Below are positions 1 to 13,552 of a DNA stretch of 64,000 nt, piece by piece. The translations under genes and the position numbers were made by a program. The first letter of the stretch is position 1. Each line of letters begins with the position of its first letter. Location of the stretch: contig CAVRJM010000001.1 of the NCBI GenBank assembly GCA_963722075.1, forward strand, positions 256,001-320,000, written 5' to 3'. The DNA is from Candidatus Babeliales bacterium (GTDB taxonomy: Bacteria > Babelota > Babeliae > Babelales > JANWKD01). The notes below the pieces were generated by a model. That model searched no databases. It was not told the origin of the DNA and was given only the letters and a program-made list of their open reading frames with translations.

Positions 1-1048
1 TTCAAAAAAAGTATGTAAGCAATTATCAAGCCAAGGATTTTTGATGGCGGTCTTCTTTCAAGCAGCAGGAGAGCATGCAGTTGAGTGGCGCTTATATGAT
101 ATGGGAACACTTACTATGCAAAGAGGAAAAAAAATAACCGTACAAAATCAACCGGAAATACAAAAGAAAGCACATCACGTCGCCGATACGATATGGGCAT
201 TATTAACAGGACAGCCAGGAATTTTTTCAACCAATATTAGTTACTGCATGGAGCGTAAAGTGAATGGGCATGTACTGAGTGATATTTATTATAAAACGCC
301 CACCAGTATAGAACCGCATTGCTTAGTGAGAGGCGGTAAATTACTTGCTCCTCGCTGGAATAATAATAATCAAAATCCATTATTATTATATTCGGAAGTA
401 ACGCCAACCAATATTCGCTTGATGGCAACCAATTTGGATGGAAAGCGGTATATGGTTTCTAATTTTGATGGGCTTACTATGCTGCCATCAGTATCGAATA
501 ATGGGGAATATATTGCATATTGTGCCACCTATAAAGGAACGAGCCAAATATATTGCAGTATGCGTGATCCTAAAACCAATAGAAAAATCTCATATCGTAA
601 AACGCATAATGCTGGTAATAACACATCACCGACGGTATGTAATAATGGCGATATTATTTTTTGTTCTGATTTTGAGATGAAAACGCCACAAATATATTAT
701 TTGCATGGAGATACCGATGTTCTTGATCGTATTACTAACGGTGGTTATTGTGCATGCCCTCATTTTTGTCAAAAAAATAATAAAATAGTGTATTGCAAAT
801 TAGTAGAAGGGTATATGCAGCTTTTTACTTATGACATGCATAATAAGCACCATACACAGATTACGTTTAGTAAAGAAAATAAAGATGAATGCTGCTGGTC
901 GCCGTGTGGTAATTATGTTATTTGTTCAGTTGATAAACCAAAAGGAAGCCGCATTGCATTACTCAATATGACTACCCAAGAACAGCTTTTAATTACTCCT
1001 GAAGGAAGTTCTTGCTTGTATCCTTCTTGGTCAGGTGTAATAATATAA
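1..1048 (+). CDS. tolB: TolB-like periplasmic beta-propeller protein (5'-truncated by window edge)
   Basis: Reading frame is open from base 2. AHHVADTIW..LTGQPGIFST linker and PD40-type repeats (LAPRW, NTSPT, IIFCSD..TPQIY, WSPCG, PSWS). Confidence 0.85.
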   Translation, partial: SKKVCKQLSSQGFLMAVFFQAAGEHAVEWRLYDMGTLTMQRGKKITVQNQPEIQKKAHHVADTIWALLTGQPGIFSTNISYCMERKVNGHVLSDIYYKTPTSIEPHCLVRGGKLLAPRWNNNNQNPLLLYSEVTPTNIRLMATNLDGKRYMVSNFDGLTMLPSVSNNGEYIAYCATYKGTSQIYCSMRDPKTNRKISYRKTHNAGNNTSPTVCNNGDIIFCSDFEMKTPQIYYLHGDTDVLDRITNGGYCACPHFCQKNNKIVYCKLVEGYMQLFTYDMHNKHHTQITFSKENKDECCWSPCGNYVICSVDKPKGSRIALLNMTTQEQLLITPEGSSCLYPSWSGVII

Positions 1049-1077
1049 ATAATGTTAATAACAATAAGGAGAAGACA

Positions 1078-1743
1078 GTGAAGTTATTATATATATTGAT
1101 AACAAATCTTTTTTTATGTTCTGTTCTAAATGCGAATAATCAAAATGAACTTTTTGACGCCTTATCTACTTTACAACAAAAAATGAGTGCTTTAGGTAAC
1201 ACCTTAATGAAAAAACCGGTTCAGCCTCAAAAAAAATTACCAAAAAAAACAAAAGGATCGCCAGAGCCTACTCAATATCAAAAAGAAATGTCTGAGTGGA
1301 CGAAACAAAGCAAAATAATAAATGATATCGCAGAAGAATTTAATAAAAAGCCGGATGAACTGGGCGCTATCTTAGTAAAAAATATAACCGAAGGTAAAGA
1401 AATTATGGTGGGTAATAAAGTAGTTGATTTAGATGAGTATTTAAGCTATCAAAAGAAATATTTTCAAAATATATTTCCAACGTTAGAAGAAGCATTAAAA
1501 GAATTAAATGCTATAACAATAAAGCCACCTAATTTATCGGTTTTTCCAAATATTGTAGCAATTACCGGTAATTCATCTTATTTGAAGTTATTATTTTCAC
1601 AATTGGGAAGTGCTTATAAAGATGTGCTCGATGAAGAAACACTTAATCTATTACACTCATTAGAGAAATTAGTTGGTGGTTTTAGTGAAAAATGGGAAAA
1701 AATGAAGGTGAAATTCGGTAACAAATTTGCCGCGAAAGTTTAA
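1078..1743 (+). CDS. Secreted hypothetical protein with N-terminal amphipathic helix
   Basis: AAGGAG RBS before GTG at 1078; signal peptide ending VLNA; Lys/Pro-rich linker. Confidence 0.7.
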   Translation: MKLLYILITNLFLCSVLNANNQNELFDALSTLQQKMSALGNTLMKKPVQPQKKLPKKTKGSPEPTQYQKEMSEWTKQSKIINDIAEEFNKKPDELGAILVKNITEGKEIMVGNKVVDLDEYLSYQKKYFQNIFPTLEEALKELNAITIKPPNLSVFPNIVAITGNSSYLKLLFSQLGSAYKDVLDEETLNLLHSLEKLVGGFSEKWEKMKVKFGNKFAAKV

Positions 1744-1827
1744 TACTGATTTTACTGCAAACTACAAAAATATTCTTGCTTGCTATAGGGGGTTTTATTG
1801 TATAATAGTAATAAATTGGAGGTTCTC

Positions 1828-2331
1828 ATGAATAAACTATATATTTTAATAAGTTTATTATTACCCATTTCCGTGGCGAGCTTAGCAATGGAGGCTCCAG
1901 AAAAAGAAAAAGAAACAGAAAAAATAAGAACTAGTCGAACAGTAAGGCTTTCGGCAGAAGAAGCACAAAAATTATATTGGGATACCATTGCTGTCGGTGG
2001 AGTGACCGGAAAGCAATTGCCTTATGAAGAATATCGGGCAAATTTAATGGCAGTGATTCCATTAATGGGCTTTACGCAGAGTCGATTCAGTGATCCATTA
2101 GCAGATGCGGTTCATATGAGAGATACTGAATTTGTAAAATTTTTATTAGAGCATGGTGCTGACCCCGATTTTAGGGGAATGAACAGTTTAAGCGCTCATG
2201 ATTATTTAGATCCTGGTTGTGCAGGTAAAATCCGTCGTGCCAAAAATCCGTATCCAGGTTCAGTTGAAGAAATACAAGCATTGCTTAATAAATATTCGGC
2301 ACAAATAAAATGTACTAAATATCGTCAGTAG
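1828..2331 (+). CDS. Secreted single-ankyrin-repeat protein (paralogue 1 of 3)
   Basis: GGAGG RBS; signal peptide SLA|MEAP; ankyrin motif PLADAV..RDTEFVKFLLEHGADP. Confidence 0.85.
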   Translation: MNKLYILISLLLPISVASLAMEAPEKEKETEKIRTSRTVRLSAEEAQKLYWDTIAVGGVTGKQLPYEEYRANLMAVIPLMGFTQSRFSDPLADAVHMRDTEFVKFLLEHGADPDFRGMNSLSAHDYLDPGCAGKIRRAKNPYPGSVEEIQALLNKYSAQIKCTKYRQ

Positions 2332-2520
2332 AATAATATTCATTAATAGTTATTTAAAGCACTGCATTCTTACTTAAACTGAATTGCTTTTTTTTATTTT
2401 TCTTCTCTTGGTCAGTGGCGTTATCATAGAAAATAATTGAAAAACAGCTACTATTGATAAATACGAAGCTGTTATTGTATACTTATTAACAAATGGGTCT
2501 AATTAGAAAAGGGAGGTTCT

Positions 2521-2994
2521 ATGAAAAAATTACTAATTATCTTATGTTCGTTATTTTTTATTTCTCTTAGTTTGGCAATGAAATGTCCGGTAGGGGAAGG
2601 AATTAGAGAGCTATTAGAACTCTCAAAACAAGAAGCCGAAACTATTTATTGGGATACGGTATTTACTCATTTACCGTATGAAGAATATCGTGCAAATTTA
2701 ATGAAAACTATCCCACTAATTGATTTTATTCGCCCACATTATAAAAGACGTGTATTAGGTTATGGCTATCCTTTATTAATAGCAGTATGGATGAGAGATA
2801 CTGAATTAGTAAGACTTTTATTAGAACATGGCGCAGATCCTCTTTTTAGAGATTTTAGCGACTTGAATGCATATGATCTTCTTGATTATAAAAGCGCTGG
2901 TGTTGATGCACCAGAAAATCCGTACCCAGGGACGTCTGAAGAAATAATAGCATTACTTGATTCTTATTCAAAAAGAAAAAAGAGCTCAATTTAA
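2521..2994 (+). CDS. Secreted single-ankyrin-repeat protein (paralogue 2 of 3)
   Basis: GGAGG RBS; SLA|MKCP; PLLIAVWMRDTELVRLLLEHGADP; shares LPYEEYRANLM and NPYPG motifs. Confidence 0.85.
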   Translation: MKKLLIILCSLFFISLSLAMKCPVGEGIRELLELSKQEAETIYWDTVFTHLPYEEYRANLMKTIPLIDFIRPHYKRRVLGYGYPLLIAVWMRDTELVRLLLEHGADPLFRDFSDLNAYDLLDYKSAGVDAPENPYPGTSEEIIALLDSYSKRKKSSI

Positions 2995-3031
2995 AATTTT
3001 ACAATTTAACGGATTATTCTGAAATGATTTT

Positions 3032-3228
3032 ATTAATGGATCCAGCCTTCGTCCTTCAGACTACGGCGGACACCGTGCCCATGCCTTGTCCGGCATAGCT
3101 TTAGCGACGACGGAGAGCTCGCCGTGACATCATGGCTCCGATTGTCATCCCGAGTTTACGTGGGGACTGCGTCCGCCGTAGCTTGCCAAGCCGGTAGGCG
3201 TGGACAAGCGTAGGCAGGATCCATTAAT
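3032..3228. repeat. Composite palindromic element (REP/RPE/MITE-like) with 12-bp terminal inverted repeats
   Basis: ATTAATGGATCC (3032-3043) and GGATCCATTAAT (3217-3228); GC-rich; contains a GTCATCCCGAG..GGGGA unit and three TCCGCC-GTA-GC..GC-GAA-GGCGGA-type hairpins. Confidence 0.8.
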
Positions 3229-3385
3229 TAATAACTTCTTTATTAGTTCAATGTAATAGATAAGTCTTAGCTAAAATCGCGCTTTTATTTACAGGCTTTT
3301 TGGTGTGTTTGCCCTGTTGAAAAAAGGCGAACTTTTTGAAGGATAGGAATATATTTTTGTATACTAGAAGATAAAGGGGGATCAC

Positions 3386-3892
3386 ATGAAAAAATCATTT
3401 ATTTTAATTTGTTTATTATCTATTGCTTCTGTTTGTTTTGCAATGGAAGCTCCAGAAAAGGAAAAAGAAACAGAAAAAATAAGAACTAAGCCAACAGTAA
3501 GGCTTTCCAGTAAAGAGGCAGAAAGATTATATTGGGCTACTGTAGCTCCTAGTGGAAGGCCCGGACAATCATTGCCTTATGAAAAATATAGAGCAAATTT
3601 AATGGCTGCGATTCCATTTATAGAATATACGCAGAGTTCATTGAGGGATCCATTAGCAGAAGCGGTATGGATGCGAGATACCGAATTTGTGAAGTTTTTA
3701 TTAGAGCATGGTGCAGATCCTAATTTTAGGACAATGACTACTTTAAGCGCGTATGATTATTTAAATTATGGAAACGCGTGTGGGGCTGCTATTCCCGCTC
3801 CTCAAAATCCGTATCCAGGTTCGGTTGAAGAGATACAATCATTGCTTAATAAATATTCAGCACAAATAGAACGTACTAAATTTTCTCAATAG
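3386..3892 (+). CDS. Secreted single-ankyrin-repeat protein (paralogue 3 of 3)
   Basis: CFA|MEAPEKEKETEKIRT has the same mature start as paralogue 1; ankyrin motif present. Confidence 0.85.
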   Translation: MKKSFILICLLSIASVCFAMEAPEKEKETEKIRTKPTVRLSSKEAERLYWATVAPSGRPGQSLPYEKYRANLMAAIPFIEYTQSSLRDPLAEAVWMRDTEFVKFLLEHGADPNFRTMTTLSAYDYLNYGNACGAAIPAPQNPYPGSVEEIQSLLNKYSAQIERTKFSQ

Positions 3893-4098
3893 ATAATACA
3901 TTCATTCGCTATCCAAAAAAGAATAAAGAAAATAGCTGATTTTTCCCATAATCCCCCAGTATAACCCAGGGTATTATTAACAACTTGAAATTAATTTATT
4001 TTCTGATATCCTATAGATATAGGTTTAAACCTATTTATCCAATAATTTAAAGGTAAAAAGCCTTAAAAGAAGAATTTAAGGAATCTATGGAGGTATCA

Positions 4099-5454
4099 GT
4101 GAAACTGTTATATATAAGTTTATTATCATTAGCATTCTTACCATGTGCTGCAATGAACCAATCTTCTTCTCATGATGGTATTTTCTATTTAGTTGAAGCA
4201 TCGGATGGCCAATTGGTAGAACTACCTGAATCAGTAATAAGAAGATTAAAAGTACTCAATGATTGTTTTAAAGATACTGCCGAAGATTATCTACACAATG
4301 CGTATGCTGGTATTAAAGAAAAAGTTACGGGTAAAGCTGATAAAAATATTTTGTTTTTTAGTTTAAAAGATCGAAGCATTCCCCAAGATATTCCCTTAGA
4401 TAAAGATTGGGACATACCCGTAGATAGCACATTATTGCAAGATTTGAGCGATTGTTTAAGAGGCGTTAAAAAGGTTAAACAATTGGATCCAAAAAAACTT
4501 AATGAGCTTTTTGAAGCAGCTGATTGTTTGGGAGCGCCACGAGCATTCTTAAGAAAATTAACCTTATATGCGCGTAAGTGCTTACCAAAAGATGAGCAGC
4601 ATCGATTAATTTGCTGTGGCCATTATTTAAATTCGCTTAATACCTTTATTGATAATGGGTATTTTACCAAAGACAATGAACAAAATTACCTATCAATACA
4701 AAAAGATCAGAATAATAATGATATTATTACATTACAATTATCGGGTTTAGAGCTTGATAATTTACAGGGTATTGATAAAGTTGCCCGCATTGTTGGCACT
4801 GGAGTTCATAAAATTTGTTTAGAAACAAATAAATTAGTAAAAATTAATTTAAGCAAATTTTGGGAATTATTTCCTCATTTGAATGAAATTAGTTTGGCGC
4901 ATAATAAAATTACAAAAGCCTGTTTATCCATTCCCAATCAATCTTATTCAATGCCAGTTGGTGCGATAATAAATTTATCCGATAATCGACTAAAAAAAAT
5001 TAAGGGAAAATTATCTGAAGCAGCAATTTTAGATATTCAAAAGAATACGATAAGTCCCGAGCTTAAAAATTGTTTAGAATTAATTCAAGAGCCCACATTT
5101 TATCAAAATAATCATTATTTTATTAAAGCATTAAAGAGTAATTATTTTTTAAGTAATATGAAAAAAGGTACAGAAATAGGCCTGATGGGCGTAGGTATGC
5201 TTCCGCTGAGTGTTTCTTTGATCTTATATTATAAAAAAGTTCAAAAATTACCGTCAGAAACTATGAATTTAGAATATGCACAAATTTTTTTGAAACAATT
5301 AAAAGATGTCGTTACAGACCCATTGACATATAAAACAGCTCTTAATTATTTTAGTGGGATGTGTTTATGGAATGTAAGTGTTAATCTTATTTGTGATAGG
5401 GACTTTTATAAGCAGCATTATGGTTTTATTTTACCACAAATCATTACTGATTAA
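4099..5454 (+). CDS. Secreted Skp1/BTB-like plus leucine-rich-repeat protein with hydrophobic C-terminal segment
   Basis: GGAGG then GTG at 4099; CAA|MNQ; LVEASDGQLVELP and LNELFEAADCLG resemble Skp1/POZ; LRRs ICLETNKL, ISLAHNKI, INLSDNRL. Confidence 0.7.
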   Translation: MKLLYISLLSLAFLPCAAMNQSSSHDGIFYLVEASDGQLVELPESVIRRLKVLNDCFKDTAEDYLHNAYAGIKEKVTGKADKNILFFSLKDRSIPQDIPLDKDWDIPVDSTLLQDLSDCLRGVKKVKQLDPKKLNELFEAADCLGAPRAFLRKLTLYARKCLPKDEQHRLICCGHYLNSLNTFIDNGYFTKDNEQNYLSIQKDQNNNDIITLQLSGLELDNLQGIDKVARIVGTGVHKICLETNKLVKINLSKFWELFPHLNEISLAHNKITKACLSIPNQSYSMPVGAIINLSDNRLKKIKGKLSEAAILDIQKNTISPELKNCLELIQEPTFYQNNHYFIKALKSNYFLSNMKKGTEIGLMGVGMLPLSVSLILYYKKVQKLPSETMNLEYAQIFLKQLKDVVTDPLTYKTALNYFSGMCLWNVSVNLICDRDFYKQHYGFILPQIITD

Positions 5455-5757
5455 TTAAAGAGCTACAACATCACTGTATGTTAATTTGCTGCATATAAAT
5501 TCAATTTATATTTAAAATATTATAAATAAATTCCATAACCCAATCAAACGCCACGCGTTTTTTTGAACTTTTATACTTCATAAAACATCGACAGTACGCA
5601 CTTCTTTGAGTATAATTATGAATAACTTCTCATTTTTATTATTTTATAGTACAATTAGAATATATACTGCTGGTGAACTCTTTAAATTTTTAAATTGTTA
5701 AATACTGCTTGCAATTATTTAGAAAATAGATCTGTTGAAACTAAATAGGTATCAATT

Positions 5758-8406
5758 ATGAAACACAAATTAAAAAATAACCCCTTTGTACGCGGCCCTA
5801 AGAATCTTATTTTTGCGCTTATTTTTTTTGTAATTTCATTAGCATTGCTAACGAAATTAACCGATTATACCCGCCATGTTAAAAGTATTGCGTATTCTAC
5901 CTTCTTAAAGAATGTGGAACAGGGAACGGTAAAATCAGTCCATATTAGTGGGCAAGATGTGTATGGTATTTTACAAGACGGTACGCGCTTTGAAACGGTA
6001 GTTGCTGAAAGCCCAAGCAATTTAGAACTATTGCGCCAACATAATGTAGAATTTTCAGTAGCACCAACCACTGGCCAATTTAATATATGGCATCTGCTGT
6101 TGTTATTCTCTTTCTTGCTTGTACCCTTAATAGTTTGGTACTTTTTCAAACAATCACGCGGTGGTTCTGGCGGAGGAACTACGCTGTTTAGTATGGGTAA
6201 AAGTAAAGCGAAGATGTTTATGCCATCTACTATTAAAATAAATTTTAAGGCAGTTGCTGGTGCTAAAGATGCCAAAGAAGAGCTTAAAGACGTTGTTGAT
6301 TTTTTGAAAAATCCTGAAAAATACCGTCGATTAGGTGCAAAGATACCGCGCGGTGTTTTACTGGTGGGTGAACCGGGTAATGGTAAAACGCTCCTTGCTA
6401 AAGCGGTAGCAGGGGAAGCAAATTGCCCATTCTTTAGTATTACGGGTTCAGATTTTATTGAAGTTTTTGTTGGTGTGGGCGCAGCGCGTGTTCGCGATCT
6501 GTTTGCGCAAGCGCGTAAAAATGCACCGAGTATTATTTTTATTGATGAAATTGATGCCATTGGCCGTCAACGTGGCAGTGGTTTTGGCGGCGGCCATGAT
6601 GAGCGTGAGCAGACCCTTAATCAACTTCTGACTGAAATGGACGGCTTTGATACGGCAGGTTCTTCGGTGGTGGTGTTAGCTGCTACCAATATGCCAGACG
6701 TGCTTGATAAAGCATTATTGCGTCCAGGGCGTTTTGATCGCCGTGTGGATGTACCGTTTCCTGATGCTGAAAGCCGTGAACAAATTTTACGCATACATGC
6801 GCAACAAATTAAGCTTGATCCTGAAGCTGATCTTAAAAAGATTGCTGAAGTTACTGCCGGGTATAGTGGCGCTGATTTAGCAAATCTTATCAATAAAGCG
6901 GCTATTAATGCCTCTAAAAAGAACCAAGATAAGGTCATGATGGAAGATATCGAAGATGCGCATAAAACAATGCTGCAATCATATAATGGACCAGCATCAA
7001 GTGCTACACAAATGACTAAAGGCAATAGTAGTGCTAAAATGTTTATGCCATCGCAAGTTAAATGTAACTTTGAACACGTAGCGGGCATGCAAGAAGCAAA
7101 AGAAGAGTTGCGGGATGTTGTTGATTTCTTAAAAAATCCTGAAAAATTCAGACGCTTAGGGGCAAAAATTACTAAAGGGGTGCTGTTAATTGGTGAACCA
7201 GGTAATGGTAAAACCTTACTTGCTAAAGCCGTTGCTGGCGAGGCAAATTGCCCATTTTTTAACGTAAGTGCTTCTGAATTTGTAGAAATGTATGTTGGGG
7301 TGGGTGCTTCGCGGGTGCGTGATCTATTTAATCAGGCGCGTAAGCATAATCCAAGCATTATTTTTATTGATGAAATTGATGCGGTTGGCAGACATCGTGG
7401 ATCTGGCATTAATGGCGGCAATGATGAACGTAATCAGACGCTCAATCAATTGCTAACTGAAATGGATGGTTTTGATACATCGTTAAGTTCGGTGATTGTA
7501 ATAGCGGCAACAAACCGACCTGATTCCCTTGATCCAGCATTAATGCGGGCAGGGCGCTTTGATAGAAAGGTAGAAGTTCCGTACCCAGATCTTGCGAGCC
7601 GTGAAAAAATTCTTAATTTACATGCTCAAAAAATTATTATGGATCCAGTAATTGATTTACATAAGGTTGCCCGTGGCACGCCCGGGTTTTCTGGTGCAGA
7701 TTTGGCTCATTTAGTAAATGAATCGGCATTACTAGCTTCGCGAAATGGTGAAAAAACCATGGTTTCAATTCAAGATTTTGAAGAAGCGCGTGATAAAATT
7801 ATGATTGGAAAAGAGTTAAAAACAATCGTGTTATCTGAACAAGAGCGTAAAATAACGGCATTCCATGAATCAGGACATGCGTTAGTGCGCTTATTATTAC
7901 CAGAATATAGCGATCCATTACATAAGGTAACTATCGTACCGCGAGGACGTGCGTTAGGCGTTACCCATTCATTACCAGAACGAGAAAAATATACCCAAAC
8001 CAAGGAAGAGATGCTTACGGTGATTATGGTTTGCTTAGGTGGCCGTGTTGCTGAAGAAATGGTCTTTAATGTACTGGGGACCGGTGCGTATAATGATTTT
8101 GAAAAAGCTACTGAAGTTGCACGCCGCATGGTATGTTCTTATGGTATGTCTTCAGAATTAGGCCCGGTGGTTTATAAGCAACAAGAGGGCGAATATACCT
8201 ACTCTCAAAAAACAGCAGAACGCATTGATGCAGAGGTGCAAAAGCTGTTAGAGCAATCATATCAAAAGGTTAAAGAACTCTTGGGCCAACACAGGGATAA
8301 GCTTGAAAAGCTGGCCAATCATCTCTTTAATAAAGAGACGCTCTTTGCTCATGAAATCTATGAGTTGCTAGGAATTGAAGCGCGCCAAGACTTTAAACTT
8401 TCATAA
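5758..8406 (+). CDS. ftsH: ATP-dependent zinc metalloprotease FtsH with duplicated AAA+ module
   Basis: Two TM helices, two GEPGNGKT/IIFIDEID/SRH modules, HESGH zinc motif and M41 protease domain. Confidence 0.95.
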   Translation: MKHKLKNNPFVRGPKNLIFALIFFVISLALLTKLTDYTRHVKSIAYSTFLKNVEQGTVKSVHISGQDVYGILQDGTRFETVVAESPSNLELLRQHNVEFSVAPTTGQFNIWHLLLLFSFLLVPLIVWYFFKQSRGGSGGGTTLFSMGKSKAKMFMPSTIKINFKAVAGAKDAKEELKDVVDFLKNPEKYRRLGAKIPRGVLLVGEPGNGKTLLAKAVAGEANCPFFSITGSDFIEVFVGVGAARVRDLFAQARKNAPSIIFIDEIDAIGRQRGSGFGGGHDEREQTLNQLLTEMDGFDTAGSSVVVLAATNMPDVLDKALLRPGRFDRRVDVPFPDAESREQILRIHAQQIKLDPEADLKKIAEVTAGYSGADLANLINKAAINASKKNQDKVMMEDIEDAHKTMLQSYNGPASSATQMTKGNSSAKMFMPSQVKCNFEHVAGMQEAKEELRDVVDFLKNPEKFRRLGAKITKGVLLIGEPGNGKTLLAKAVAGEANCPFFNVSASEFVEMYVGVGASRVRDLFNQARKHNPSIIFIDEIDAVGRHRGSGINGGNDERNQTLNQLLTEMDGFDTSLSSVIVIAATNRPDSLDPALMRAGRFDRKVEVPYPDLASREKILNLHAQKIIMDPVIDLHKVARGTPGFSGADLAHLVNESALLASRNGEKTMVSIQDFEEARDKIMIGKELKTIVLSEQERKITAFHESGHALVRLLLPEYSDPLHKVTIVPRGRALGVTHSLPEREKYTQTKEEMLTVIMVCLGGRVAEEMVFNVLGTGAYNDFEKATEVARRMVCSYGMSSELGPVVYKQQEGEYTYSQKTAERIDAEVQKLLEQSYQKVKELLGQHRDKLEKLANHLFNKETLFAHEIYELLGIEARQDFKLS

Positions 8407-8487
8407 TGTTTCATTTTGAAAAAAGAGTTTTTTTAAGATATACTACTAGATTATTATGGTATTAGAGAAAGGATTCTAAGGATACTC

Positions 8488-8691
8488 ATGTCAAGAATTT
8501 GTTATGTTTGTAACAAGCGGCCACAAGTAGGTAACCTGGTAAGCCATGCACGAAACAGGGTTAAACGTTGGATTTACCCAAATGTTCATAAAATGTGCTT
8601 TATTTTGGCTAGCTCAGGTAATCGTAATGTTATACGTGGAGCTGTATGTGCAAAATGTGTTAAATCAGGTAAAGTTGAAAAAGTCGTTTAA
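8488..8691 (+). CDS. rpmB: 50S ribosomal protein L28 (four-cysteine form)
   Basis: MSRICYVC..GNLVSHA..KRW.YPN..VCAKC. Confidence 0.93.
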   Translation: MSRICYVCNKRPQVGNLVSHARNRVKRWIYPNVHKMCFILASSGNRNVIRGAVCAKCVKSGKVEKVV

Positions 8692-8709
8692 AAATAAGGT
8701 TATTATATA

Positions 8710-8988
8710 ATGGCAAATACTAAATCAGCCAAAAGACAAGCAAAAAAGAATATCGTTAAAGCTAAAAAAAATCTTGCTCGCCGTACTGCTATTAAAACGG
8801 CTATGAAAAAAGTATTAGCAGCAGTTGAAGAAGGTCTTGATGCAGCACAGGTAAAAGAGTTATTACGATCAGCTGAATCAAAACTTGCACGTGCTAAAAG
8901 CAAAAACACGTTGCATCCTAAAACAGCATCACGTAAAGTAAGTCGTCTTGCTAAGCGTGTATCATCTGCACAAAGAGCTCAACAATAA
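8710..8988 (+). CDS. rpsT: 30S ribosomal protein S20
   Basis: MANTKSAKR...LHPKTASRKVSRL. Confidence 0.95.
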   Translation: MANTKSAKRQAKKNIVKAKKNLARRTAIKTAMKKVLAAVEEGLDAAQVKELLRSAESKLARAKSKNTLHPKTASRKVSRLAKRVSSAQRAQQ

Positions 8989-9016
8989 AAAAAGGCATTT
9001 TCATAATGCCTTTTTT
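8987..9016. terminator. Bidirectional intrinsic terminator
   Basis: AAAAAAAGGCATT-ttcat-AATGCCTTTTTT between convergent genes. Confidence 0.8.
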
Positions 9017-9734
9017 ATTTTGTTTGATTATTTTTTAGTTCCAATAATCTCTTATAATTTGTTACTAGTTTTCTAACGTTATCTATTTGTTTTTCTAGCT
9101 CTTCAAATTTTTTCCAGATAGTATTAGTTAGTTCATTTCTCGTACTATCTTTATCTTCTAAGTCTTCTATTCGTTCAGCTTGATCATTATTGATTTTTTC
9201 ATATTTAATTAAATAATCTTCTAAAGCATTTGTCTTTTCAATAAGCATTGCAATCTGGCTTGGACGAGTTGCTTTTTGTGGTTTTTCTATATCGCTTTTA
9301 TCGATGCCTATTATTAATTCTATATTAGTAACGCGCCGTGTTAATTGCTTTAATAAATTTTGCGTTTCACTCATTTGCGAGAAGGATGCTCGTGGTGATT
9401 CTGTTAGCTTATTAGGTTGCGATGAAGCAATGTGATCTAATAAGCTTTTATAGTGCTGTCCATTATTATAATACGCATAATAGATGCCCCATCCAAAAGC
9501 GCATAAAATAGGATATTTTATTAAACTGGGAATGGTATGCCAGCAATTCTTTACTAATTCATAGGCATTTAATGTTTCAGTTTTATTAAAATAAGAATAG
9601 ATTCCAAGTCCCATAATACCACCACTTAATAATGAATAAGGATGCGATATGGTATTTTTTAATTTTTGAAAAGGCTTAGTGGAACCTATATGCAGTAATA
9701 AGCACAGTGAGAAAATGATTTGTTTATTGATCAT
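9015..9734 (-). CDS. Hypothetical membrane protein with C-terminal coiled coil
   Basis: Signal-like N-terminus, two short hydrophobic segments, long heptad-rich C-terminus; overlaps the upstream gene stop (ATGA). Confidence 0.65.
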   Translation of the reverse strand: MINKQIIFSLCLLLHIGSTKPFQKLKNTISHPYSLLSGGIMGLGIYSYFNKTETLNAYELVKNCWHTIPSLIKYPILCAFGWGIYYAYYNNGQHYKSLLDHIASSQPNKLTESPRASFSQMSETQNLLKQLTRRVTNIELIIGIDKSDIEKPQKATRPSQIAMLIEKTNALEDYLIKYEKINNDQAERIEDLEDKDSTRNELTNTIWKKFEELEKQIDNVRKLVTNYKRLLELKNNQTK

Positions 9735-10339
9735 TGTTGTGATGATTCGCTGTTCATAATAAAGGAAAGACTCATTCTATCCTGATTTTGATGCTCAGGA
9801 TAGTTTTGTTTATATAGTTGATAATATGTATAAAGTGATTGCTTGATATCAGGAGTTAATGGTGGTTGAGATGGCGTTTTTATTATAGTTAATATGGTAT
9901 TAAAAAGTGAACGAACGGCAAATGGATCCTGAGCATCTAAATGCAGGCTGATTAATTTTAGATAGGTATTAATCTGTAAATTATAAAAATGCGTTTGGTA
10001 TATTTCTCTATAGTGTGCTATTTCATGTGGAGTGGAAAATTCATACGGTATTACTTTGAAAGTAAGTAATCGGTTCAAGTGTTCAATTTCTTCTAATAAC
10101 AAATCCTTAATTCCAGTGAGTTTATTATTGGTTGGATGCAAATTATAACTATGACAGATTTGTAGATATTCCCTTTCAAAATCTCCTATTTTTTGCATAT
10201 GAGGCTTAGCCTGCTTTTTATAATACACTCTTCCGCTATTAGAACCAAATTTATCTTCTTGGTTATCCTCTTGATCAGGATTCATAGCTTGCATCGATAT
10301 CATTGCCGTAATGATTAAAAAAAAAGTAGCATATTTCAT
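9731..10339 (-). CDS. Secreted hypothetical protein
   Basis: GGGG RBS; signal peptide MQA|MNPD. Confidence 0.7.
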   Translation of the reverse strand: MKYATFFLIITAMISMQAMNPDQEDNQEDKFGSNSGRVYYKKQAKPHMQKIGDFEREYLQICHSYNLHPTNNKLTGIKDLLLEEIEHLNRLLTFKVIPYEFSTPHEIAHYREIYQTHFYNLQINTYLKLISLHLDAQDPFAVRSLFNTILTIIKTPSQPPLTPDIKQSLYTYYQLYKQNYPEHQNQDRMSLSFIMNSESSQQ

Positions 10340-10527
10340 GTGATTTCCCCCGGTAAATTAAATACTTATATAATAGTAATAATGGCATAAATTTAGATTA
10401 AAATTCAATTAATTAAATTTTCTTGTAAGATTTATAATGTTATAAACTTTTACAAGAAATTATATTTATTTTACACTAGAAGTAAATACGATTTATTCAA
10501 AAAAATCTTTAAAAAACGAATCAATTA

Positions 10528-12354
10528 ATGGATTTAAAAAAAATAAAACTCAGTGAAATAAAACCTGAACAAATTAGAAATTTCTCAATTATTGCGCATA
10601 TTGATCATGGCAAATCTACCCTTGCGGATCGGTTACTGGAAACTACTGGTACCTTATCAGAGCGAAAACGGCATGAGCAATTTTTAGATAAATTACAAGT
10701 TGAAAAAGAGCGGGGCATAACGGTTAAGGCCCAAACAGCGTCCATGTTTTATGAATATAAAGGCCAATTATACCTGCTTAACTTAATCGATACCCCCGGG
10801 CATGTTGATTTTAGTTACGAAGTTTCTCGCTCATTATATGCATGCCAAGGAGCATTGTTATTAGTTGATGCAGCCCAGGGTGTGCAAGCACAAACTATGG
10901 CCAATTTTTTCCTTGCTTTTGATCAAGATCTCACTATTGTGCCCGTTATTAATAAAATTGATATGGCAGCAGCAAATCCTGCTTTAGTAGCGCAAGAATT
11001 GAAACATCTTTTTGATATAGCTGAGAGCGAAAATATTCTAGCATCTGCTAAAAATGGCATTGGCATCGATGCTATTTTAGAGGCTATTATAACCCGTATT
11101 CCGGGACCGCGTTCAGATACTGAACAACCCCTTAAAGCGCTCTTATTTGATTCGTGGTTCAATGAATATAAGGGGGTTATTTGTTTGATTGCCATAAAAG
11201 ATGGCAGTCTTAAAATAGGAGACTCAATTACGTTAGCGCAAACAGGCCAAACATACGAAGTGCTTGAGATTGGCTTAATGTATCCTGATGAATCACCCAT
11301 GGATGCGCTGTATGCTGGTCAAGTTGGCTATTTAGTTGCCGGTATGAAGACCGTAAAAGAAGCGCGCGTAGGCGATACCATATTCCATACTAAAAAAGAA
11401 GTGGTTCCATTTCCTGGTTTTAAACCATCAAAGCCGATGGTGTTTGCAGCAATTTACCCGGTTGATAGCTCTGAATTTGACTTACTTAAAGATGCAATTG
11501 AGAAATTAACGTTAAATGACGCGAGTGTAACGGTTGAAAAAACAACGTCAGTAGCATTGGGGCTTGGATTTCGATGCGGATTCTTGGGCCTATTGCATAT
11601 GGATGTTTTTAAGCAACGTCTTGAACAAGAATATAATGTTACTGCTATTGTTACTTCCCCTTCGGTGCGTTATAGAGTGAAGTTAAAATACAGTAATGAG
11701 ATTATTGATATTGAAAACCCAACTGATTTTCCTGAGCCGCAAAAAATTGAAGAGATTTTAGAACCGATTATTAATGCCACGATTATTGTTCCTAAAAAAT
11801 ATTTAGGCAATATTATGAACTTATGCCAAGAACGGCGCGGTCAGCAAAAAGATATGACCTATTTGACTGAGGATCGATTAATTCTTAAATATGTATTGCC
11901 ACTTAATGAAGTAGCTACCAATTTTTATGATGAATTAAAATCCTTGAGTTCTGGTTATGCGAGCTTTGACTATGAAGAAGCGGGCTATCAGGTATCTGAT
12001 TTAGTTAAAATGGATATTTTACTTGGTGGCCGTCCGGTGGATGCATTATCAGTAATTGTACATACTGATAATGCTTATTACCTTGGACGCGATATGGTGC
12101 AACGATTGAAAAAAGTTATCCCACGGCAATTATTTGAAGTTATTATTCAAGCAGCTTTAGGTTCTAAAATAATCGCACGAGAATCAATTTCTGCATTACG
12201 AAAAGACGTTATTGCTAAATGTTATGGTGGCGATATTACGCGTAAGAAAAAATTGTTAGAGAAACAAAAAGAAGGTAAAAAGCGCATGAAGCAAGTCGGT
12301 AATGTTGAATTACCCCAAGAAGCCTTTTTAGCTTTTGTAAAACGAACAGAATAG
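10528..12354 (+). CDS. lepA: Elongation factor 4 (LepA)
   Basis: IRNFSIIAHIDHGKSTLADR, DTPGHVDF, GFRCGFLGLLH, KCYGGDITRK. Confidence 0.98.
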   Translation: MDLKKIKLSEIKPEQIRNFSIIAHIDHGKSTLADRLLETTGTLSERKRHEQFLDKLQVEKERGITVKAQTASMFYEYKGQLYLLNLIDTPGHVDFSYEVSRSLYACQGALLLVDAAQGVQAQTMANFFLAFDQDLTIVPVINKIDMAAANPALVAQELKHLFDIAESENILASAKNGIGIDAILEAIITRIPGPRSDTEQPLKALLFDSWFNEYKGVICLIAIKDGSLKIGDSITLAQTGQTYEVLEIGLMYPDESPMDALYAGQVGYLVAGMKTVKEARVGDTIFHTKKEVVPFPGFKPSKPMVFAAIYPVDSSEFDLLKDAIEKLTLNDASVTVEKTTSVALGLGFRCGFLGLLHMDVFKQRLEQEYNVTAIVTSPSVRYRVKLKYSNEIIDIENPTDFPEPQKIEEILEPIINATIIVPKKYLGNIMNLCQERRGQQKDMTYLTEDRLILKYVLPLNEVATNFYDELKSLSSGYASFDYEEAGYQVSDLVKMDILLGGRPVDALSVIVHTDNAYYLGRDMVQRLKKVIPRQLFEVIIQAALGSKIIARESISALRKDVIAKCYGGDITRKKKLLEKQKEGKKRMKQVGNVELPQEAFLAFVKRTE

Positions 12355-12460
12355 TTGATTTCTTATGGTATCTTTTTGATAGTAATAATGAATTCAAGGG
12401 TTGCTGCTTAGATAAAAATTCTTGGATTTATGATAACCGGACATTATAGATAAGGAACAT

Positions 12461-13552
12461 ATGAATAAATCAGAAAATAACAAAGAGCAATCACATCTTT
12501 TTTCTGGCAACATTTTCATTTTTCAGGCATTTGATATTGGGGAAGATATAAACTTAGAGAAAGTTCGTCAATCCGAAAATGTGTTAGTACGGCCATTAAC
12601 CTTATCAAAATATTTTAAAAATTATCATACGCCGCTTCCTATTGATTTACCGCATCCGCATGAAAGCTCTAAATTTATTAGCAGTAATTTACACAGCTTT
12701 GGGGTGATTTCATTAGCCTATAAAGTTCCGTTTCATGATACTCTAGAAAATTTGCGCAAAAAATTAATTACTATTGATGGAGAGTTTCAAGAACAAGGCG
12801 TTATTGATGCTAGTTCTATTTTTAAAGTAATAAAAAAATATGTAAAACATGAACGTTTTTTCCATTTACGCACCTCGTATGTGGTAATTCAAGTTGACCC
12901 GCGTCCGGATGCAATTTCAGTGGTTGGATTTAAAGATAGGTATGGCAGCTTTATTGCCTCACTAGTACGTTTTGAAACTGAAAGTTTAAGTGAATATCAA
13001 AAAGGTGAAATTCTTGATTCGGCATTAGGATATTATCGCGAAGATCTTTTTATCATCGATACCCAAGCAGCATTTGTGTATGATGATGAATATGAAGATA
13101 TTTTAGATCTCTTTGAATTTGCTAATATACAGCAACTAGAATTACAGTATTTTGATCGTATGCTTGATCAGCAACTTAATGTGGTATACCAACGCGAAGT
13201 GCGCACACTGCCGCTCAAAGCATATATTCCATTAATTGGCTCATTGCCGCGTGATTTGATTGGCTCATTGGGCATTTTAAAAGTAGAAATTTCGGTGATT
13301 ATTGAGCGTCTTGAAAGTAGTATTAAAATTGCCGGCGAAGAATTCATTTCAGAATTATACTCGGTATTAGTGGATAAATTAGATTTAAAAAATTGGAAAG
13401 AATCGATTAATACTAAATTAGAAATTATTAAGGATATGAACTCCTTTCACCAAAATAAAGTTGATTCAATTCGTGAAGATTTCTTATCGATTCTGATTAT
13501 TGTGTTAATTTTTATTGAATTAGTGGTTGGTATTTTAAGTTATTTAAAATAA
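12461..13552 (+). CDS. RMD1/DUF155-like protein with C-terminal TM helix
   Basis: AFDIGEDINL, ELQYFDRMLD, W..SI..KL and C-terminal LSILIIVLIFIE pattern typical of the RMD1/YagE-like family. Confidence 0.6.
   Translation: MNKSENNKEQSHLFSGNIFIFQAFDIGEDINLEKVRQSENVLVRPLTLSKYFKNYHTPLPIDLPHPHESSKFISSNLHSFGVISLAYKVPFHDTLENLRKKLITIDGEFQEQGVIDASSIFKVIKKYVKHERFFHLRTSYVVIQVDPRPDAISVVGFKDRYGSFIASLVRFETESLSEYQKGEILDSALGYYREDLFIIDTQAAFVYDDEYEDILDLFEFANIQQLELQYFDRMLDQQLNVVYQREVRTLPLKAYIPLIGSLPRDLIGSLGILKVEISVIIERLESSIKIAGEEFISELYSVLVDKLDLKNWKESINTKLEIIKDMNSFHQNKVDSIREDFLSILIIVLIFIELVVGILSYLK

Follow-up and report, generated by a model that had tools for sequence, protein, structure and literature searches.

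Organization of the ftsH locus

A 64,000-nucleotide stretch of DNA (the window) from a Candidatus Babeliales genome assembly (GCA_963722075.1, contig CAVRJM010000001.1, positions 256,001 to 320,000) was found to carry an ftsH gene whose product has two consecutive AAA modules, named here D1 and D2, followed by a single M41 protease domain (Table 1). The host is a parasite-like, uncultured bacterium of the Dependentiae (Babeliales), in which this tandem gene is the housekeeping ftsH. Judged by its sequence, this two-motor FtsH is genuine, old, under selection, and apparently intact in function. This tandem architecture had been proposed in a sequence-only reading of the window; the frame proved to be open, and each of the motifs named there was found at its coordinates. 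Re-reading of the nucleotides gave GEPGNGKT twice, IIFIDEID twice, and HESGH once, and the two modules start with MGKSKAKMFMPS (D1) and KGNSSAKMFMPS (D2).

Analysis of the 882-residue protein with Pfam identified FtsH_ext, one Peptidase_M41, and AAA and AAA_lid_3 matches in two stretches each, one lid for each AAA module; the single protease domain given in the sequence-only reading was confirmed. The limits of D1 and D2 were placed with a module hidden Markov model (HMM) built from canonical relatives. The NCBIfam equivalog model for FtsH, TIGR01241, matched in two stretches with 1200.5 bits (cut-off 600), and the narrower model for E. coli-type FtsH, NF008004, reached 946 bits, below its cut-off of 1008. 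The CDC48 model TIGR01243 remained far from its threshold (457 bits, cut-off 803). The protein is a variant of the FtsH family that has all of the tested FtsH features except that of one AAA module per chain.

Alignment with the E. coli FtsH chain 7vhp_A was obtained in two parts, with residues 15-360 corresponding to 3-347 of the E. coli protein and residues 578-872 corresponding to 290-594, and the tandem protein can therefore be described as an FtsH that is normal apart from an additional motor module in its central part. The N-terminal anchor is colinear with residues 3-130 of E. coli FtsH. Asp-780 aligned with Asp-492 of 7vhp_A and is presumably the downstream acidic ligand of the M41 zinc protease. 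The ESM Atlas held no model for the 882-residue protein, and its feature matches were ordinary FtsH clusters.

Table 1. Positions within the window of the tandem ftsH gene, its encoded domains and motifs, and an upstream promoter-like match.
Feature	Positions	Strand	Basis
ftsH gene (882 aa) for a protein with two AAA modules and a single M41 protease; no other intact FtsH in the genome	5758..8406	+	Open frame
First hydrophobic (transmembrane) segment, aa 16-33	5803..5856	+	Sequence; alignment with 7vhp_A (N-terminus of E. coli FtsH)
FtsH_ext periplasmic domain (PF06480), aa 18-103	5809..6066	+	Pfam, 41.2 bits (cut-off 25.5)
Second hydrophobic (transmembrane) segment, aa 108-130; a Gly-rich linker follows	6079..6147	+	Sequence and 7vhp_A alignment
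AAA module D1, aa 146-417	6193..7008	+	Module HMM, Pfam
D1 Walker A	6367..6390	+	
D1 pore loop FVG	6466..6474	+	
D1 Walker B	6532..6555	+	
D1 arginine fingers RPGRFDR	6721..6741	+	
Inter-module linker LQSYNGPASSATQMTKGNSS, aa 406-425	6973..7032	+	Sequence variable, length kept
AAA module D2, aa 421-696	7018..7845	+	Module HMM, Pfam
D2 Walker A	7192..7215	+	
D2 pore loop YVG	7291..7299	+	
D2 Walker B	7357..7380	+	
D2 arginine fingers RAGRFDR	7546..7566	+	
Peptidase_M41 domain (PF01434), aa 691-870, with conserved Asp-780	7828..8367	+	217 bits
HESGH motif of the M41 domain	7864..7878	+	
Sigma-70-like promoter match TCGACA-17-TATAAT (11/12), about 140 nt 5' of the start codon	5588..5616	+	Consensus match only, weak

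Conservation of the two AAA modules

D1 and D2 shared 68% of their amino acids (179/262). At the DNA level, they were 66.5% identical over 272 codons, with a proportion of synonymous differences (pS) of 0.63 and of nonsynonymous differences (pN) of 0.25. These values show that the duplication is old, in agreement with the sequence-only reading, which had taken it for an old and retained one: synonymous sites are near saturation, amino acid change is low, and the layout recurs in many other genomes (see below).

Residue conservation was examined in an alignment of 94 full-length tandem homologues. The Walker A lysine, the Walker B aspartate and glutamate, the sensor-1 asparagine, and both arginine fingers were invariant in all 94 proteins, both in D1 (K210, D263, E264, N311, R322, and R325) and in D2 (K485, D538, E539, N586, R597, and R600), as were the protease residues H703, E704, H707, and D780. 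The aromatic residue of the pore loop was Phe in 92 and Tyr in 2 of the D1 modules, and Tyr in 80 and Phe in 14 of the D2 modules. From these signatures, both modules look active, as the sequence-only reading had also suggested. Comparison of the host gene with that of a congener yielded pN values of 0.081 (D1) and 0.092 (D2) against a pS of 0.65-0.72, and the large excess of pS indicates that purifying selection acts on both modules. The spacing between the Walker A lysines of D1 and D2 varied little, from 268 to 279 residues, with a mode of 275 (20 of 37 proteins).

The Walker A motif of both modules has Asn instead of Thr before GKT. The sequence-only reading had called this motif atypical. 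The motif is indeed present twice, but it is not peculiar to the tandem form, as the same replacement was seen in 24 of the 30 canonical single-module Dependentiae FtsH proteins examined. It is a trait of the phylum.

Some features of D1 weigh against two equivalent motors. The residue after the sensor-1 asparagine in D1 was Met or Ile, and never Arg, in the 94 close homologues. Among genome-derived modules, Arg was found at this position in 5 of 38 D1 modules, compared with all 38 D2 modules and 27 of 28 canonical modules, and because this Arg is mostly lost, D1 may not work exactly as a canonical module does. In addition, the C-terminal helix of D1 lacks the DFEEARDK motif leading into the protease, which is kept in D2 and in canonical modules. 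Both differences would fit a protein with two tiers and one motor, in which one ring, more likely D1, would mainly bind nucleotide and serve assembly, gating, or substrate selection. The D1 ring of p97 and the D2 ring of NSF are examples of such mainly nucleotide-binding rings. Two published cases point in the same direction: the first copy is reported to be inactive in two-copy FtsH-type ATPases of MoxR-vWA conflict systems (Kaur et al., 2020; PMC7159879), and one copy of Orf2971 is reported to hydrolyze much less ATP (PMC9421593). We nevertheless consider a single motor quite unlikely. The Walker B glutamate, the sensor-1 asparagine, the arginine fingers, and an aromatic pore residue are kept in every D1 as well as in every D2 of the alignment, and D1 evolved more slowly than D2 in all four ortholog comparisons as well as overall, with a mean identity of 67.3 vs 63.6%.

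Distribution within the Dependentiae

The named relatives come from metagenome-assembled genomes of Candidatus Babeliales or Dependentiae. A survey of 261 species-level Dependentiae genomes from 21 families (labeled f1 to f21) yielded 46 two-module frames of full length, including one that contains in-frame stops, together with three frames interrupted by contig ends and two split into two pieces. The tandem form is thus present in at least 51 of the 261 genomes, a sizeable minority rather than the rule in the phylum. It was found in eight of the 21 families, which answers the question of taxonomic spread raised by the sequence-only reading: 5/5 genomes in f1, 21/41 in f2, 2/4 in f8, 1/8 in f9, 9/10 in f12, 2/2 in f16, 6/8 in f19, and 5/80 in f21. 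No tandem form was detected in the other 13 families, and the other genomes surveyed encode an ordinary FtsH of 605-650 residues. Of the best 120 clusters in the protein collection, 101 were 830-943 residues long and 58-94% identical to the query.

This distribution also bears on whether the repeat might be an assembly artefact, or a recent duplication without functional consequence. Nothing beyond the repeat itself speaks for either, and we regard their probability as negligible, given the 66.5% DNA identity between the modules with near-saturated synonymous differences, and the recurrence of the layout in 101 protein clusters of several sources and in no fewer than 51 independently assembled genomes. 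Low-depth contigs of four metagenome runs were also compared with the gene. None spanned the whole of ftsH, and one bridged the D1-D2 junction, the place where the sequence-only reading had asked for continuity: this 459-nt contig, from a soil metagenome run that may be the window's own source, covers positions 6965-7423 with 0 differences.

In 10 tandem genomes that were checked, no second intact gene for a full-length canonical single-module FtsH was found. In two of the 10, extra intact single-module FtsH genes were seen (562 and 569 residues in genome G016; 537 residues in G120). These are shorter frames that start nearer to the AAA module, and HEAGH is kept in the two that were read.

Two further observations concern related genes. 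A congener genome holds a second tandem FtsH, a 764-residue frame with 69% identity (L060, G108:C1:208500-211700), which has only a short N-terminal hydrophobic segment, no periplasmic domain, and an intact HEAGH. In family f5, genus g34 encodes a divergent two-module FtsH-like protein (41% identity; L061, G061:C1:831000-834500) with YRKAGR and hence no zinc motif; the genomes of this genus have 7-8 Peptidase_M41 matches, and FtsH paralogs may thus have expanded locally.

Origin of the duplication

In a careful maximum-likelihood tree of 66 AAA modules, all D1 modules formed one clade (support 100/99) and all D2 modules another (83/90). D1, D2, and the canonical module of genome G011, which lies beside D1, formed one group (83/88), and this tandem clade was nested beside canonical modules of family f2 (88/94). 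When D1 and D2 were constrained together in a 108-row set, the likelihood was better than that of the quick free tree (p = 0.72 in the approximately unbiased, AU, test). The M41 domain data were likewise compatible with a single tandem clade (p-AU 0.535); the M41-only tree is poorly resolved. The module trees, the D1 + D2 constraint, and the M41 result indicate one internal duplication as the origin of the tandem form, which is the outcome of the comparison of D1 with D2 that the sequence-only reading had called for.

The placement of all crown canonical modules in one clade was not rejected by the AU test (p = 0.22). Five of the eight tandem-bearing families also include genera with canonical FtsH only, and neither the D1 nor the D2 clade contains canonical modules from those families. 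The patchy spread could reflect either gene transfer among Dependentiae lineages or early coexistence of both forms followed by reciprocal loss. The single-module FtsH of G011 (L038, G011:C11:14000-16700) branches beside the D1 clade (95/83) and has Ile after the sensor-1 asparagine, the D1 signature; it may be a tandem gene that collapsed to one module.

Host genome, gene neighborhood, and other proteases

The host genome (1.47 Mb in 4 contigs, 99.2% complete) gave one Peptidase_M41 match, the tandem ftsH. Outside the window, it also contains a 988-residue frame for an FtsH-like paralog (L077:328-3291, G000:C1:473127-476090), with a long N-terminal extension, one divergent AAA module (GPPRTGKT), a changed arginine-finger motif (EPGRFGK), and a weak similarity to M41 in which HQAGH replaces HExxH. 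This paralog is, by its motifs, predicted to be protease-dead. The single M41 match and the HQAGH of the paralog leave the tandem FtsH as the only proteolytically competent FtsH of the cell.

Relatives of the dead paralog and of ClpP were sought in 191 Dependentiae genomes that are at least 90% complete. Relatives of the paralog were present in 130 of them (13/13 in f3 and 62/63 in f21). They are distributed over the same "crown" families in tandem and canonical genomes alike, and f4, f6, f13-f18, and f20 have none. A role of the dead paralog as partner of the tandem FtsH was rejected, as it is also present in families that hold only canonical FtsH. ClpP had no match in the host genome. Three of the 191 genomes had strong ClpP matches, and 31 more had only weak, partial ones (E values from 9e-9 to 9e-4); ClpXP and ClpAP seem to have been lost phylum-wide. 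The idea that the tandem FtsH compensates for the loss of ClpP was rejected too, since ClpP is missing from nearly the whole phylum and its absence does not track the tandem form. The host genome also encodes two Lon proteases, one ClpB-like protein, and one Band_7 protein.

The upstream side of ftsH is occupied by ankyrin-repeat genes and open reading frames (ORFs) without a family, and the downstream side by rpmB, rpsT, and lepA. Among the ORFs of positions 1-13552, the families recognized were PD40-like, ankyrin, L28, S20, and LepA, and the rest had no family; no adaptor, conflict-system, MoxR, or vWA gene was found among them. Directly 5' of ftsH lie three small ankyrin-repeat ORFs and a 455-residue ORF (1798-3892 and 4087-5454); the latter has no Pfam family and a hydrophobic segment at its N-terminus. 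Two more family-less ORFs are located on the minus strand at 9015-10339. Sigma-70-like consensus matches of the kind listed in Table 1 were counted 10 times in the region, compared with 11.9 expected from shuffled sequences.

FtsH chains with more modules in other lineages

A survey of 103 FtsH-type proteins with several modules identified 61 chains with three modules, 16 with four, and one with six. In the other 25, two modules are parted by a second M41-like stretch, as seen in the two that were examined. Three- and four-module forms occur in the Muribaculaceae, where four-module chains are frequent (clusters of 1047 and 171 members) and where the cultured Sodaliphilus pleomorphus has a multi-module FtsH (WP_423828368.1). 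They are also found in the Actinomycetota (Acidimicrobiales, Thermoleophilia, and Solirubrobacterales) and in Omnitrophota and Melainabacteria, with one case of six modules in the latter two groups. Examples of three- or four-module proteins with one M41 domain are P0090, P0112, P0010, P0088, P0073, P0091, P0292, P0304, and P0378. In the four-module FtsH of Muribaculaceae, the third module lacks the pore loop.

In the module tree, the multi-module lineages were separate from the Dependentiae duplication. Their first and last modules grouped by position, and the extra copies were sister middle modules. Duplication of a middle module led from three to four modules at least three times and from four to six once. 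The six-module protein, P0170 (1861 residues), has a hydrophobic anchor at its N-terminus and a single M41 domain with HEAGH, and its Walker A, Walker B, and arginine-finger motifs are intact in all six modules. It is 56-65% identical to the three- and four-module forms of Omnitrophota and is known from a single cluster with one member.

Several other architectures were noted. P0186 and about 25 similar proteins (1.7-2.2 thousand residues, for example in Steroidobacteraceae) have six classic-clade AAA modules and no protease, and may be single-chain rings. A set of odd architectures (P0345, P0333, P0171, and P0260) includes AAA-M41-like-AAA-M41 chains of about 1025 residues in Omnitrophota, two whole FtsH units fused in 1666 residues, and an N-terminal RNase H1 domain joined to AAA_2, two AAA modules, and M41 in about 1605 residues.

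Proposed arrangement of the two modules

We consider it probable that the tandem FtsH forms a stacked double ring. The chain, which has the order transmembrane segment, periplasmic domain, transmembrane segment, D1, D2, and M41, arose through one ancient duplication in which a complete AAA module (about 275 residues) was copied in frame. As with canonical FtsH, contacts of the M41 disc and of the membrane part would hold six such chains together, with D2 as the usual ring atop the protease and D1 stacked coaxially on the membrane side of D2. ATP would be bound and hydrolyzed in both rings, whose aromatic pore loops would grip the substrate, and proteins from the membrane or the cytosol would pass through two serial motors before reaching the zinc sites.

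Mean pairwise identities were similar in tandem and canonical proteins, both for M41 (54.1 vs 56.2%) and for the N-terminal part (36.7 vs 34.9%). Since these parts are as conserved as in canonical FtsH, the six-fold contacts are probably kept. Alignment of D1-D2 with residues 212-709 of Cdc48 ran from end to end in one stretch (389 bits), and the net difference in length was about 2 residues. This colinearity, together with the narrow range of module spacing in spite of a linker that is free to vary in sequence, favors stacking.

The sequence-only reading had offered, beside a double ring, a trimeric pseudo-hexamer. Here, three chains would alternate D1 and D2 in one planar ring of six modules, with three anchors and three proteases. 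Several facts speak for this arrangement and thus weigh against the stack. FtsH-type copy numbers of two, three, and six occur, and all of them divide six. P0170 suggests a single-chain ring, as six stacked tiers are difficult to envisage for six modules with one anchor and one protease. The linker has about 14-20 free residues and should also be long enough for modules to lie side by side, so that its length does not discriminate between the two arrangements. A planar hexamer, however, cannot close with four modules per chain, and such chains are frequent both in the survey (16/103) and in the large Muribaculaceae clusters. They arise from three-module ones through duplication in the middle of the chain, which suits a stack and would be impossible for a closed planar hexamer. 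Abandonment of the six-fold contacts would also be expected to relax the M41, periplasmic, and transmembrane parts, which keep their conservation. To our knowledge, all natural two-module proteins of the classic AAA clade with a solved structure are stacked. We therefore regard the planar ring as unlikely; the double ring stands, by comparative inference, as the best reading.

Significance of the multi-module FtsH series

The tandem FtsH is of interest mainly as a member of a wider series of FtsH proteases with several modules. On balance, and with considerable reserve, we lean toward the view that FtsH chains can evolve in their number of AAA modules (1, 2, 3, 4, and 6 were seen) and that this number was raised independently, by duplication of whole modules, in at least four to five bacterial lineages, giving an unrecognized class of multi-tier membrane AAA proteases, and that in a Dependentiae clade the two-tier form replaced the canonical enzyme as the only FtsH. 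If this is true, a double-ring FtsH can perform essential housekeeping, because the two-tier form fully replaced the canonical enzyme. The series of 1, 2, 3, 4, and 6 motor modules on the same protease represents a natural experiment on grip, processivity, and substrate range, and shows how double rings like those of p97 or ClpA could come from single-ring ancestors. These variants are invisible in databases because they are annotated merely as "FtsH" or "AAA family ATPase".

Comparison with known systems

A full-text literature search, with subscription journals and supplements outside its scope, found no published FtsH in which at least two intact AAA modules are combined with M41, and a full-text search for FtsH together with any Dependentiae name found no paper. 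The two-module FtsH is apparently undescribed. The sequence-only reading had allowed that the architecture might prove widespread and already characterized: it is widespread, but no published characterization was found. That reading had also suggested greater pulling power for a double ring, taking FtsH to be an established weak unfoldase. This premise is contested: according to PMC9601784, the unfolding power of FtsH as a limit on its degradable substrates is still debated.

In the literature, a near bacterial counterpart is the FtsH component of the MoxR-vWA "FtsH ternary systems", which (PMC7159879) likewise has two tandem FtsH-type AAA modules in one protein. The tandem FtsH described here differs in that both copies are intact, with Walker A and Walker B kept in D1, and in that no MoxR or vWA genes are linked to it. 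Plastid Ycf2 and Chlamydomonas Orf2971 are FtsH-derived and have two AAA domains in some green algae; according to PMC9421593, these proteins have lost M41, carry a huge N-terminal extension, and have a role in protein import.

Canonical FtsH (TIGR01241; MEROPS M41; structures 7vhp of E. coli, 2dhr of T. thermophilus, and 2ce7 and 3kds of T. maritima) shares with the tandem protein the membrane anchor, the classic-clade AAA module, and the HExxH M41 domain. The tandem protein adds a second complete module between the first module and the protease, and has the phylum-wide Asn in Walker A. Its two classic-clade modules, with the same spacing and a short linker, resemble those of the type II double-ring proteins Cdc48/p97, archaeal VAT, and NSF. 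Unlike these, it lacks the N-terminal double-psi-barrel (no Pfam match), is anchored in the membrane, and carries its own protease domain. The type II proteins form two coaxially stacked hexameric rings, the arrangement proposed here for the tandem FtsH.

ClpA, ClpB, and ClpC, in which two serial AAA+ rings feed or could feed a protease, provide a functional analogy. They belong to another AAA+ clade, their modules are of different origin, and their protease, ClpP, is a separate protein that is essentially absent from the Dependentiae. By analogy with ClpA, a stronger grip or a higher processivity from the second ring of the tandem FtsH is plausible.

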